The notes under the pieces were generated by a model, which had not been told where the DNA came from, made no database searches, and saw only the letters and a program-made list of their open reading frames with translations. A stretch of 60,254 nt of DNA, counting the filler, from Dugesia japonica (taxonomy: Eukaryota), in the NCBI GenBank assembly GCA_001938525.1. It is 6 parts of 6 records of this genome, joined end to end, with 100 filler letters (N's around TTAATTAATTAA, not from the genome) between each part and the next. Parts side by side here need not be neighbours in the genome. Positions count along the whole stretch, not along the records: positions 49,048 to 60,254 come from MQRL01619888.1; 5 more parts are not named here. One strand, 5' to 3'. Numbering within the stretch: the first letter of the stretch is position 1; every line of letters starts with the position of its first letter. The position numbers and the translations under genes were made by a program. Below, one piece after another: positions 9,282 to 51,955 of this stretch.

Positions 9282-9805
9282 ATGGGTAAAGAAATGAGTA
9301 AAATTTTACCTGGACTTTAATATGGTCGGTTGGATATACTCAAAATGATAATGATATAATGGCTAATTGTATTACTCATGTTCTAAGTGTTCATGAACCA
9401 GTTAAGCAAAAATTACACAAGGTTTAAATTTTTAAATTTTTTTTAATAATTAATTTCGATTTAAGTTCAATTTCTATAAATATGTAGAAATAAATATTAA
9501 AGATGAGGAAACCGCTTGTATATTAAAGTATTTCAGTAAAAACAATGATTTTATACAAGAAGGCTGAATTAAAAATGGAAATGTTTTAATTCATTGGAAT
9601 TAAATTGCATTTTTTTCGCTGTATATAGTTATGCTGGTGTGACAGGAACACCAACCATTGTTTATATTTAATGTCAGTTTATCATTTAACTTTTCAAGAT
9701 ACATTTAATTGTTTGCGAGCTGTACGACAAAATATTAATCCAATAGCATTTTTTGTTAAACAATTTAATGGTTTTGAAAGTAATAAAGTCTATGCAGAAA
9801 GAGAT
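9282..9805 (+). pseudogene. DUSP22: Atypical dual-specificity phosphatase (DUSP22/DUSP15-like) pseudogene with two very short introns
   Basis: MGKEMSKILPGL*..ITHVLSVHE..[intron ~9422-9465]..KYVEINIKDEETACILKYFSKNNDFIQEG*IKNGNVLIHC[~32-nt intron]YAGVTGTPTIV..LRAVRQNINP..FVKQFNGFE. This matches the DUSP22 pattern MGNGMNKILPGL/THILSVH/LVHCLAGVSRS/ANPN.GF..QL..FE. It has stops, frameshifts and a catalytic R->G change. Confidence 0.8.
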
Positions 9806-10043
9806 GATTTTTTAAATTTTTTTTTGAAAATTTAATCTTTTAAAAGCAGATTTTTAAATTAATTAAAAAAATTTTGATATAATTTTACTGTTTTGATAAA
9901 ATACGAAAAAATTAGTTAAATATGACTATTTTAACAATAATAATAATAATTCAAAAATATTTTTCTAATTCCATTTAATTAGCGTATTTATTCGAATAAA
10001 CAGTGAAAATTACTAATATTATTATTTTATTATTTATTAATAT

Positions 10044-10143
10044 NNNNNNNNNNNNNNNNNNNNNNNNNNNNNNNNNNNNNNNNNNNNTTAATTAATTAAN
10101 NNNNNNNNNNNNNNNNNNNNNNNNNNNNNNNNNNNNNNNNNNN
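10044..10143. other. Artificial scaffold-joining spacer N44-TTAATTAATTAA-N44
   Basis: Exactly 100 bp with stops in all six frames; identical at five places. Confidence 0.97.
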
Positions 10144-11510
10144 TACAGTTAATGTTAAGAATAAGGATAATATGTGCTTCATCTACAGTAAACTTGTGGT
10201 TCTCAAACTAGATGAAGTTGATGATATCAAATTATAGAAACTTTATGAATGAATTGGTGTATGATGAAACTGATATGCCCATGAAGTTGGTAAATACCCC
10301 ATAATTTGAGAAGCAAAATCAAGGATATGCCATCAAAGTCTTCTCCTAGAACTCACAACAGTTAAGAATAATGATGATATAGTCATGAAGCATCCAAACT
10401 TGGATATTATTCAGCGATCAAAAGTAGAAGATGGACAAGAAATTAATCTTTTCTTGCTTGAAGATGTAGAAAATTACCATTACACTGTAGTAATAGATTT
10501 AGATAGACTGATAAATAGGGACATAAAAAGGAATAGAGAGCAAATTCGATCAATTTGGTGCCCAAATGGCTTAAATGGATTCAAGAATAATATTGCTTGG
10601 TACAAAAATTTATAAAATACCAACAGATCCTAATTTGGAGTAAAAGTACTTTTCAAATATGATAACTCCTCCATTTGTCGTATATGCTGCTTTTGAATCA
10701 AATTTGCCAAATGATCCGATTTATCATCAGAAACATCTGCCAATTTCAGCTGGACTACTGTTGGTAAAAAACTACATAAATGAGACTAAACACAGTAAAT
10801 TTATCGGGAATGACTGTCTTTATGAGTTTTTAGAAGAAATTGAGAATAGTACTAATAATGTAGTATACCCTTACTATTTGAAACATGGGAATAGGAAAAA
10901 TGGTAATAGCTCCTGCACAAAAAATTTAATTTGCTGCCACTGTCATATGTTATTCATGTAAAAAATCAATAGTTCAACCAGTTCGCGACTCATTTTTGTC
11001 AATAAACATCATGTTAAATCTGATGAAAATACAGAACTTTTGTATTTTGATATTTATAATTTGTATGAGTGGGCATTAAGTCAACAGTTGCCATATAAAG
11101 ATTTTGTGTGGTTACATTTAAGATTGGATGAAATATTAGCAAATTTTAGGAGAATGAACTTGGATTCGTTGACATATGGATATGTAATAGAGGTGGATAT
11201 AGTAATTCTCAATGAGTTACATAATTATTTGAATGATCTACGGGTAGCAGCTGAATATCAGAGCCCTCCTGGTAGTAAAGTGAAGAAATTACTCTTAACA
11301 CATTACCCAAAGAAGAATTATGTAGTTCACTGTAGGCTGCTGCAGATATACTTGCATTTAAGTGTGAAAGTGACAAATGTACATGGAAGTGTTAAGTTTA
11401 GTCAGGCTGACATATTTAAGAAATACATAAATATGAACACAGAGATAAGACCACACCGGAAAAACGAATTGGAGAAGATCTAATACAAGCTATTAAATAA
11501 TAGTCTACAG
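10144..11510 (+). pseudogene. polB: Protein-primed family B DNA polymerase relic (third Polinton), internally deleted
   Basis: Motifs VNVKNKDNMCFIYS, INLFLL..HYTVV.DLDRLI, PFVVYAAFES, YFDIYNLYEWALSQQLP (motif A), YVIEVD, KNYVVH, and YKLLNNS (motif B, interrupted by the hAT). Confidence 0.9.
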
Positions 11511-18560: not shown

Positions 18561-18660
18561 NNNNNNNNNNNNNNNNNNNNNNNNNNNNNNNNNNNNNNNN
18601 NNNNTTAATTAATTAANNNNNNNNNNNNNNNNNNNNNNNNNNNNNNNNNNNNNNNNNNNN
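18561..18660. other. Artificial scaffold-joining spacer N44-TTAATTAATTAA-N44
   Basis: Same 100-bp spacer as at 10044. Confidence 0.97.
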
Positions 18661-28168: not shown

Positions 28169-28268
28169 NNNNNNNNNNNNNNNNNNNNNNNNNNNNNNNN
28201 NNNNNNNNNNNNTTAATTAATTAANNNNNNNNNNNNNNNNNNNNNNNNNNNNNNNNNNNNNNNNNNNN
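28169..28268. other. Artificial scaffold-joining spacer N44-TTAATTAATTAA-N44
   Basis: Same 100-bp spacer as at 10044. Confidence 0.97.
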
Positions 28269-37475: not shown

Positions 37476-37575
37476 NNNNNNNNNNNNNNNNNNNNNNNNN
37501 NNNNNNNNNNNNNNNNNNNTTAATTAATTAANNNNNNNNNNNNNNNNNNNNNNNNNNNNNNNNNNNNNNNNNNNN
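37476..37575. other. Artificial scaffold-joining spacer N44-TTAATTAATTAA-N44
   Basis: Same 100-bp spacer as at 10044. Confidence 0.97.
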
Positions 37576-48947: not shown

Positions 48948-49047
48948 NNNNNNNNNNNNNNNNNNNNNNNNNNNNNNNNNNNNNNNNNNNNTTAATTAAT
49001 TAANNNNNNNNNNNNNNNNNNNNNNNNNNNNNNNNNNNNNNNNNNNN
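48948..49047. other. Artificial scaffold-joining spacer N44-TTAATTAATTAA-N44
   Basis: Same 100-bp spacer as at 10044. Confidence 0.97.
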
Positions 49048-49404: not shown

Positions 49405-49407
49405 AAA

Positions 49408-50680
49408 ATGGAAGTAAAAATAAATCTTGATAATAATATTATGTTTAGTCATGAAATGTTAAAAAATGATATTTTAAAAATTTCACCATCCTCTAGTANA
49501 NTTACAAATTTAATAAAAGGTGGGGAGATAACATTTCAATCTTTACAATCAACAAATTCATTAGACATTGTAATGCAATGTTATACTTTAGAATAGAAAT
49601 AGAATATACGGAAGGAAAAACTGCAATACTAGAAAATAATTTTTTCCCATCTTTATTTAAATTTATGAGATTAAAACTTGGGGCNNNNNNNNNNNNNNNN
49701 NNNNNNNNNNNNNNNNNNNNNNNNNNNNNNNNNNNNNNNNNNTACTCATAGACAAATATATGGAGAATTAACAGGATGGGTTTTAGATGAAGAGCGAAGA
49801 AAAAAATTATACAAAACTAAAAAATTTGAAGGTTATTTTCCATTGAGAAATTTATTTGGTTTCATGCAAAATTTTAACCGAGTACTTTACAACACAATGA
49901 TTGAATTTAATTGTTATAGACAAATTAATAATAAAATTTTATTTAAAGGAGAAGGAACACCAAATTTAAAATTAATGACTTTAGAATTACACATTCCAGA
50001 ATGTAGATTGGCACCAAAAATGGAATTAATGCTTTTAGAAAGAATTTCAACCGATAAACCAATTAAAGTTGCATTCTTAAATAGAATAACTGGTAAAGCA
50101 ATATTAAACACCGGAAATTATACTTCTATAAAATTAAGCATGCTAGCATACAAACCAAGGTATATATTTATAGTCATGAAAAATGAAATTAATTCTTTTG
50201 CAAATGATGATAATTTATTTATACAAAAGAAAACAAAAACCACAAAAGCAATAGTGCCATCAACAGCTGATAAAATTGAAACTTATTATTTTAAAAGTGT
50301 GTAAATACAAATAAACAATAATTACTATCCAATTAATGAATGTAAATTTAATATGGAAAATAATGAAATGTGTCCCCCTATTTTAATTATTTAAAATGTT
50401 GTCAAGATTTTTTAACAGAACCACAATTATCTCTTCAAGAATTTGGTGAACTATATCCAATTTTCTGTTTTGACTTAACAGCACAAGATGATAGATTAAA
50501 TATAAATAATGTTGATGTTACACTTCACATTACAAAAGATCCTGATTTTACAGCAAGTCTTTACTGGTGCATTCTTGAGGAAAAACATGTAGAAATGAAA
50601 TTNNNNNNNNNNNNNNNNNNNNNNNNNNNNNNNNNNNNNNNNNNNNNNNNNNNNNNNNNNNNNNNNNNNNNNNNNNNNNA
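49408..50680 (+). CDS. Major capsid protein (double jelly-roll, hexon-like), frameshifted and gapped in this assembly
   Basis: Motifs NL..GGEITF, LENNFFPSLF, YFPLRNLFGF..FNRVL, KPRYIFIV, INNNYYP, LYPIFCFDL, matching Polinton/adintovirus MCP motifs. Confidence 0.85.
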
Positions 50681-50682
50681 AA

Positions 50683-51160
50683 TTTACATGTGAAAAATGT
50701 CATAGAACTTTGTTAAAAAAAATAAAGCCCGACATGTAAAACTTTGTAAAGGTGGGGGGAGATCTACAATCTTCATGTTTTATTAGTAATGTTTTAAAAC
50801 CATTTCCTTGGGAAAAATACCCAGGTGAGCAGCATTTGTTCCATAATAATTACACCGGACCAGGAACTAGATTAGATATTAGACTTGATGAAAATAATAA
50901 TCCATTACCAGGAGAAGAACCAATTAATCGAATTGATGCAGCAGCACTGAAGACATGAGAGATCGCCATAATGAAGATGTAAATTTAATTCATGATATTA
51001 ATGATATTCCAGATCCTACACCAGAAGAAAAATTTCAAGGCACTCTTGNNNNNNNNNNNNNNNNNNNNNNNNNNNNNNNNNNNNNNNNNNNNNNNNNNGA
51101 AAAATTTCAAGGCACTCTTGTAAAAATTGCAATGAAGGGAAAATTATTGATAGGGCAGGG
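50683..51160 (+). CDS. Zn-finger plus parvovirus-type phospholipase A2 domain (PLA2X), reading into the integrase
   Basis: CEKC..H.KLC; GEQHLFHNNYTGPGT (YxGPG Ca-binding loop); PINRIDAAAL; RHNED; AMKGKLLIGQG. The catalytic HD segment is missing at a frameshift near 50953. Confidence 0.85.
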
Positions 51161-51955
51161 AGTGAGTGAAGCGAGCCATGAAGAACAACGGGCAGATGAG
51201 CTTCATCATGAATATAGAAAACTCGACAATTTCTAAAAGTAACTGTAAGTGAAAAAGATGAAATTTGGTCGGCAGATTTAACATTTCACAATAAAAAAGT
51301 AATGCTAACTGTGATTGATCTTTATACAAGATTCGCTTTTATAGAACTTTGTGAAAATAAAACCGGTCCAATAGTTACTAAAGCATTTGAAAAAATTCTA
51401 GAAAAAAATTTTCGAGCCCCAAATAATTTATGGGTTGATCGTGGAAAAGAATTTTATAATTCAACATTTACGAACTGGTGTGATGATAATAGCATTAATC
51501 GCTATTCCACAAAAAATAAAAGAAAGGCAGTTGTCATTGAAAGATTTAACTGAACATTAAAGAATAAACTCTTTAAACATTTTACTACTGTTGGGAATCA
51601 AGAAATCACCCCTGAAATTACAAGAAATAGTAGATAACTACAACAACACAATTCATTCTTCAATTGGAACAACTCCAAAACTTGCATATGGTGGTGAAGA
51701 AATTTTTGAAAAACATTTTAATTAATAAAAAATCCCAAATTAAAAATTGGAGATCGCGTTAGAATTTTTAAAATTAAAAAAAATATATTAGGAAAAGCGT
51801 ATAGATTTAAATGGACTGAAGAAATTTATACAGTGATAAAAATTTATACAACAAATCCCCCAACATATCAAATNNNNNNNNNNNNNNNNNNNNNNNNNNN
51901 NNNNNNNNNNNNNNNNNNNNNNNNNNNNNACTTCTCTATAAAAAAAGATGAGTAA
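51161..51955 (+). CDS. Retroviral-like (rve) DDE integrase, disrupted
   Basis: Motifs ADELHHEYRK, DEIWSADL (D), LTVIDLYTRFA, LWVDRGKEFYN (D), KAVVIERFN*TLK (E), YNNTIHSSIG, KIGDRVRI, WTEEIY. Confidence 0.93.

Follow-up and report, generated by a model that had tools for sequence, protein, structure and literature searches.

A family of Polinton/Maverick elements in Dugesia japonica encodes a zinc finger, a parvovirus-type phospholipase A2 (PLA2) and an rve integrase in one frame, and the comparison of its copies shows this architecture to be under selection on all three domains. With a probability of roughly 0.6, the ZnF-PLA2-integrase chain of this family is a virion precursor, which would be packaged and cut at its glycine borders into zinc finger, PLA2 and integrase. 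In addition, and new beyond the original prediction, a sister clade carries a start-less integrase in the -1 frame behind a slippery heptamer. We infer packaging, cleavage at GG|D and GX|G and an action of PLA2 in entry: the three domains would be translated as one chain from a single frame, the chain would enter the virus particle as a precursor, and the element's cysteine protease would cut it at the two borders. The freed PLA2 would then serve as the membrane-lytic entry enzyme, and the freed integrase would be carried into the cell along with the genome. In the distant sister clade, a -1 slip behind PLA2 would yield much PLA2 and little integrase.

The window, i.e., the whole stretch of 60,254 nucleotides that was analysed, holds a decayed Polinton/Maverick copy at bases 49405-60254, as established from Pfam matches and comparison with relatives. 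Its features are the following:

49405..50602, plus strand: double jelly-roll major capsid gene, broken (PF21738, E 8e-08 on 49675-50301)
50683..50747, plus strand: N-terminal zinc finger, CxxC ... HxxxC (CEKC at 50689-50700, HxxxC at 50733-50747)
50748..50763, plus strand: site 1, a predicted protease site (GG|D) formed by a glycine run ahead of Asp; the frame is broken in the window copy
50761..51155, plus strand: parvovirus-type phospholipase A2 domain (PF08398)
51049..51098, no strand: assembly gap of 50 N, flanked on each side by the same 22 bases
51147..51164, plus strand: site 2, a predicted protease site of the GX|G type, where LIGQG closes the last PLA2 helix
51165..51191, plus strand: variable linker, always frame-preserving when compared across genomic copies
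51192..51873, plus strand: rve integrase (PF00665, E 4e-12; D 51275, D 51437, E 51539)
51942..52703, plus strand: A32-like packaging ATPase (PF04665, E 5e-11)
52687..53022, plus strand: pX-like core protein encoded on its own, containing a GG|hydrophobic site (52840-52857)
54063..54785, plus strand: broken gene for a penton-like minor capsid protein (32% identity, E 9e-11, to its counterpart in the IMG/VR element L180)
54767..55201, plus strand: adenain/Ulp1-like cysteine protease (H 54965, D 54998, C 55091)
56845..60254, minus strand: protein-primed family B polymerase, in fragments and running off the window (32% identity, E 4e-31, to the 1294-aa L181 polymerase)

The genes by which a Polinton/Maverick is recognized are all found here, namely PolB, an rve integrase with its DDE triad (D, D and E located), the packaging ATPase, the double jelly-roll capsid and the adenain/Ulp1-like protease. 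The element leaves the window inside PolB, for whose fragments no Pfam match was obtained. At the other end it starts directly after the gap 48948-49047, and its left neighbourhood is therefore another contig; the five scaffold joins at 10044-10143, 18561-18660, 28169-28268, 37476-37575 and 48948-49047 all show one gap pattern, with 12 bases between two blocks of 44 N. The major capsid gene ends within the N gap 50603-50679, ahead of the zinc finger, and the same gap hides the zinc finger start codon. No Pfam pX match was obtained for the window ORF 52687-53022 itself; its positional homologue in a relative matches Adeno_PX (E 0.003), and the GG of the pX-like protein is kept in 15 of 19 genomic copies. 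The window protease has no meaningful direct match in Pfam or among PDB sequences. It shares 35% identity (E 5e-14) with the protease part of P0097, which matches Peptidase_C5 weakly (E 0.019), and its adenain/Ulp1 family label rests on such weak matches of relatives. Its catalytic residues are kept among 20 copies (H 20/20, D 20/20, C 19/20). A 308-aa ORF at 55164-56090 contains fibre-like repeats of the kind seen in the L069 and L181 neighbours, with no Pfam match, and a low-complexity direct repeat (units QQPLVPQ/ETKPEIK) lies at 53263-53551, upstream of ORF 53467.

The original prediction read a ZnF-PLA2-integrase polyprotein from this very copy, after correction of two homopolymer frameshifts. 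The motifs it named are in place, including the glycine run ahead of DLQ at 50748-50769, and so are both frameshifts, one near 50715 in an A-run and one near 50754 in a G-run, but the breaks are more numerous than listed. The catalytic HD segment of PLA2 is lost near 50950, as had been noticed, and this deletion also shifts the frame, the segment being 25 nt shorter than in 42 copies; a further frameshift lies near 51222. Similarly, the claimed passage from AMKGKLLIGQG into ADELHHEYRK is indeed free of stops (51129-51221), but ORF 50955-51236, in which it was read, spans the assembly gap 51049-51098, and therefore its gap codons correspond to no real sequence, while its stop at 51236 results from the frameshift near 51222. 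The PLA2/integrase junction lies wholly to the right of this gap, and other genomic copies are contiguous where the window has it. The integrase core (PF00665) is in a different frame from this ORF, with a stop at 51551 and more breaks after it. Because the domain is broken, the window PLA2 stays under the curated cut-off of PF08398 (E 0.009). Broken at many places, the window copy encodes no polyprotein, and the fusion is shown by other copies. The breaks may be mutations or sequencing errors.

Genomic copies were collected by two DNA searches, in which 40 of 3623 and 40 of 2249 candidates were scored, giving 58 loci (55 without 3 duplicates), which are the closest matches and no random sample. 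Motif anchors were set independently of frame. A stop plus a separate start between PLA2 and integrase had been named as the pattern that would speak against the fusion. The family does not show it: in 49 of 49 testable copies the reading frame continues from the end of PLA2 to the head of the integrase, and two of these copies carry a stop. Between the anchors, the linker measures 39-141 nt and takes 16 lengths, all of them multiples of three (49/49); such frame retention over 16 lengths has a probability of about 7e-8 if lengths are independent. The fusion is real for the family, although it could not be read from the copy in which it was first proposed. The second half of the zinc finger is in frame with PLA2 in 37 of 40 copies, and the integrase head with its core in 45 of 47. 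Of 44 testable copies, 40 retain HD, and PF08398 is above cut-off in family relatives; the family thus has the calcium loop GxG and catalytic HD that define a parvovirus-type PLA2, and the window copy does not. Pairwise comparisons among copies, in which pairs are non-independent, gave dN/dS of 0.16-0.50 in the zinc finger, PLA2 and integrase segments, and the zinc finger shows pN 0.09 vs pS 0.30.

The zinc-finger A-run is in frame in only 15 of 39 copies and out of frame in 24. Its state is unrelated to kinship, nearest neighbours agreeing in 12 of 24 cases vs 12.9 after shuffling, and it is best read as homopolymer slippage or miscalling; the other A-runs that served as controls differed from it in length. 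A programmed frameshift at this run was rejected as the main reading, since translation in the zero frame would yield a short peptide, close relatives keep the frame and the state ignores relatedness.

The purifying selection on PLA2, together with its retention of HD, also bears on a very improbable alternative, in which the family forms no particles, PLA2 is a passenger on an intracellular transposase and the integrase comes from an internal start or a spliced message. Every copy seen is fragmentary or damaged, and most own copies have a Met in the last PLA2 helix, both of which would suit this alternative. However, it is difficult to reconcile with that selection or with the presence of capsid, penton, ATPase and protease genes, and Met is absent, in 14 of 59 external fusions, over the whole span from the last PLA2 helix through the first 25 residues of the integrase. 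A conserved internal Met as integrase start was considered and rejected, as it is missing in many relatives; 36 of the 59 external linkers are without Met.

The original prediction also suggested looking for the same fusion in related elements, where in-frame PLA2 and rve domains proved common. PF08398 and PF00665 occur together in 25 of 59 long proteins matching the PLA2 part, and both also turn up in 36 of the 150 best representatives of a profile search. Among 80 metagenome loci, taken from 114 matches, 20 were fused, 35 had both domains in separate ORFs and 25 had PLA2 only. A further 21 fused matches were found at 51-55% identity, mostly on long contigs; IMG/VR scans yielded one weak locus and then L180-L183, from two contigs. 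In a FastTree phylogeny of 111 integrase domains, own copies nest among in-frame fusions in a clade of support 1.00, and several other positions also hold fusions; this tree is midpoint-rooted, with weak deep nodes and no formal test, and about 64 collected integrases were left out of it. The zinc finger in relatives reads CxxC...H...H, with weak zf-U1 matches (E 5e-4 to 0.016). The AlphaFold model of one fused relative (pLDDT 75.6, pTM 0.43) has an integrase that matches retroviral integrases (PFV integrase, E 1.6e-14), and Foldseek with the whole fused model returned, among the matches listed, integrases only.

PLA2 is not the only partner of these integrases. P0097, P0158 and P0076 are protease-integrase-chromodomain fusions with GAG, GKG and GGG/GSG linkers, and in P0152 and P0193 the order is reversed, with integrase-chromodomain followed by a GxG linker and then PLA2. 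The C-terminal chromodomain that defines an adintovirus integrase is present in more distant fusions, and no Chromo match was found in 14 close fusions. Several other arrangements were observed. Many Lottia gigantea gene models (P0009-P0039) hold PLA2, and P0026 continues past the end of PLA2, via GMG, into the integrase head and diverges thereafter, hence the fusion probably also exists in Lottia gigantea. In P0083, the integrase is joined to a fibre-like repeat with no glycine motif and may be a gene-calling chimera. L183 encodes a zinc ribbon-GG|D-PLA2 at 9800-10372, with no integrase among the downstream ORFs.

Conservation of the glycine borders, which had been anticipated for GG and GQG, holds for the first site and in altered form for the second. 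At site 1, GG is present in 35 of 40 copies and in 23 of 31 testable external fusions. At site 2, the first Gly is kept in 48 of 49 copies and what follows is variable, with G-x-G in 27 and G-x-S in 17, hence not GQG as such. The border Gly is kept via all four synonymous codons in the genomic copies. Of 59 external fusions, 50 have GG or GxG where PLA2 ends, compared with 5 of 1332 integrase windows of ten residues; among other integrases, only 11 of 103 have such a motif in the 45 residues ahead of the domain. In contrast, 12 of 49 own linkers and 9 of 59 external ones are without any GG or GxG.

The cleavage rule has to be revised. The strict adenain consensus is given, in the available part of the source, as (M/I/L)XGG|X or (M/I/L)XGX|G, GX|G being cut before the last Gly (PMC4246237). 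The second cut, proposed as GQG|V, would hence fall at GQ|G. In the window, site 2 fits the consensus (LIGQ|G) and site 1 does not; M/I/L occupies P4 in 8 of 50 external relatives, where K is found in 26, and site 1 has C or K at this position, so that the adenain rule as such is mostly not obeyed. In mavirus, the integrase is found within virions, the protease cuts GG|X and GY|G, and one hydrolase of the virion is cleaved, possibly at GK|G (PMC6048507). As motifs, the borders agree with this mavirus rule (GG|X, GX|G) better than with the strict adenain consensus: by sequence, site 1 reads GG|D in 26 of 40 copies, and a mavirus-type motif occurs at site 2 in 27 of 49, though adjoining a helix end. 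In the AlphaFold model, both sites fall within or next to low-confidence stretches that separate independently folded domains. Site 1 is inside a segment of pLDDT <50 (residues 29-52), and the last PLA2 helix ends directly at the first Gly of site 2, which may therefore be a helix cap.

The last point leads to the main rival of the precursor reading, which we regard as unlikely: a fusion that is real but uncut, or cut at site 1 alone, in which the glycines are an inherited helix cap and flexible linker. An origin by loss of the stop between two neighbouring genes, a stand-alone PLA2 and an integrase, is held to be unlikely to the same degree. This rival owes its rank to unfused PLA2s ending in the same motif, with only 1-3 residues following the site-2 glycines in L079, L080, L082, L083, L085 and L087, and likewise in L183, P0152 and P0193. 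Furthermore, PLA2 and integrase are adjacent separate genes, the integrase having its own Met, in L080, L082 and L087, and the G-x-S forms and site-less linkers among own copies would agree with a mere linker. However, protease-integrase fusions have no PLA2 helix and share the linker motifs, GG|X also recurs in the pX-like protein, and the homologous mavirus protease cuts such motifs in the available account (PMC6048507). Packaging and protease release in the precursor reading would lean on the analogy with mavirus and on the independent protease-integrase and integrase-PLA2 fusions.

A second group of loci suggests that the dose of integrase may be regulated. In the 35 metagenome loci with separate ORFs, the two are adjacent in 30 and in -1 frame in 25. 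Sister-clade loci were taken as the 26 whose integrase has an ELHxP head, 9 of the 35 split loci being left out (no head or distant). The integrase is in the -1 frame in 24 of the 26, and no locus has a Met before the integrase head (0/26), which leaves the integrase ORF start-less in all 26. An in-phase slippery heptamer lies in the overlap in 22 of 26 loci vs 0 in 2342 PLA2 codons. With peptides fixed and codons redrawn, using one locus per 90% cluster and counting the whole tail, a tail heptamer was found in 17 of 17 cluster representatives vs 7.5 expected; the P value of this test is too small owing to kinship among the loci, which form 17 clusters at 90%, 3 at 80% and 1 at 70%. Four of the 24 -1 loci have no usable heptamer, and L180, a 16.9-kb near-complete element with polymerase, protease, capsid, penton and ATPase, shifts frame without one. 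No downstream stimulatory RNA structure was found within 60 nt behind the last heptamer in 22 loci (z -2.1 to +1.2, mononucleotide shuffles, pseudoknot-free folding).

The short form dominates across ENA, JGI and Logan, with many clusters of several members. Among proteins without genomic context, the chain stops 2-62 residues after GxG in 115 of the 120 best homologues, and the short PLA2 of the sister clade ends in GL|G in 117 of 120, with a basic tail in 108 of 120. Full in-frame forms above 65% identity number only 3, the 21 others belonging to a more distant group. From these sequence patterns, the sister clade likely makes the PLA2-integrase fusion at low level by a gag-pol-like -1 slip. 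In P0209-P0328, DUF5679 corresponds to the N-terminal zinc ribbon of PLA2 precursors, and their tails show a recurrent Ser-Lys-Asn or Leu/Phe-Lys-Lys motif where the heptamer sits in sequenced loci.

It is conceivable, though improbable, that the -1 arrangement instead reflects homopolymer error or decay of an in-frame gene, as is probably the case for the zinc-finger A-run of the Dugesia family, which is out of frame in most copies irrespective of relatedness. Junction homopolymers reach A7-A10, and the near-identical loci L077, L116 and L099 differ in phase. Long A-runs occur almost only at the PLA2/integrase junction, so sequencing errors would gather there too. Against error or decay, the shift has the same direction in 24 of 26 loci, several loci have only A6 runs with canonical A-AAA-AAC or T-TTA-AAA heptamers, the integrase frames are otherwise in one piece in 25 of 26, and the short protein dominates all three collections with few full in-frame counterparts.

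In retroviruses, the integrase enters the particle as the tail of a structural precursor, Gag-Pol, which is made by read-through fusion or a -1 frameshift, and it is freed by the viral protease. The elements described here would share the integrase as precursor tail, but they are DNA virus-like, with PLA2 replacing Gag, a cysteine protease and no stimulatory RNA structure found. Adenovirus pVI loses an N-terminal propeptide and lyses membranes. In the available part of the source, pVI is also cut at IVGL|G, which releases the short basic C-terminal peptide pVIc (PMC4246237). The sister-clade short PLA2, which ends in GL|G and a basic tail, resembles this virion precursor, with no claim of sequence homology; unlike here, the adenovirus system has no integrase and needs M/I/L at P4, mostly absent from these elements. 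Mavirus has a homologous cysteine protease cutting GG|X and GX|G, a virion rve integrase and a cleaved hydrolase; however, its integrase MV02 and hydrolase MV13 are separate products, and the available sections report no tether or frameshift (PMC6048507).

Parvovirus-type PLA2 acts in entry (PMC8502044). It is known from adintoviruses and Polintons as PLA2X, which similarly accompanies capsid, penton, ATPase, adenain, rve integrase and PolB but has a C-terminal pX-like domain (PMC8502044), whereas in this family PLA2 is attached to a zinc finger and the integrase, with the pX-like protein encoded by a gene of its own. The PLA2X-type relative P0053 shows Adeno_PX, and the order PLA2 then pX is not found in this family. 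A -1 frameshift in the adintovirus penton and hexon-adenain fusions were predicted by Buck et al. 2024 (10.1101/2024.03.25.586562), who likewise place slippery sites in virion genes; these concern penton and hexon-protease, and PLA2-integrase is unmentioned in section 16 of that work. What the available literature already contains is PLA2X, PLA2 as a separate gene of Polintons, and the predictions of frameshifts in penton and hexon-protease. A PLA2-integrase fusion or frameshift is not described in the available parts of PMC8502044, PMC3671162, PMC5803895, PMC10748475, PMC8097293, PMC11161782, PMC13215967 and PMC6048507, nor in those of bioRxiv 697771, 2023.10.16.562556, 2024.03.25.586562, 2026.06.19.733378, 2026.10.13.758929 and 2023.10.06.561300. 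The words "fused" and "polyprotein" have no occurrence in the main text of PMC8502044. The domain pair is plainly visible in database annotations, and an earlier annotation of the fusion is possible, for example in supplementary genome maps or Repbase.

For the wider group, we give even odds to the proposal that Polintons repeatedly evolved gag-pol-like loading of integrase, by a cleavable glycine tether to a virion protein, with one widespread clade dosing it by a -1 slip. The tether partner would be PLA2 in front, PLA2 behind, or the protease itself. If this is true, the main product of the sister clade would be a short pVI-like PLA2 precursor, made of zinc ribbon, GG|D, PLA2, GL|G and basic tail. 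For annotation, many "PLA2" ORFs followed by a start-less "integrase" ORF may be one gene. These findings bear on whether Polintons form infectious particles and on how the integrase reaches the incoming genome, as a selected fusion of integrase with an entry enzyme would make little sense for a purely intracellular transposon; if the reading is true, the fusion would constitute direct sequence evidence for Polinton integration straight after infection.
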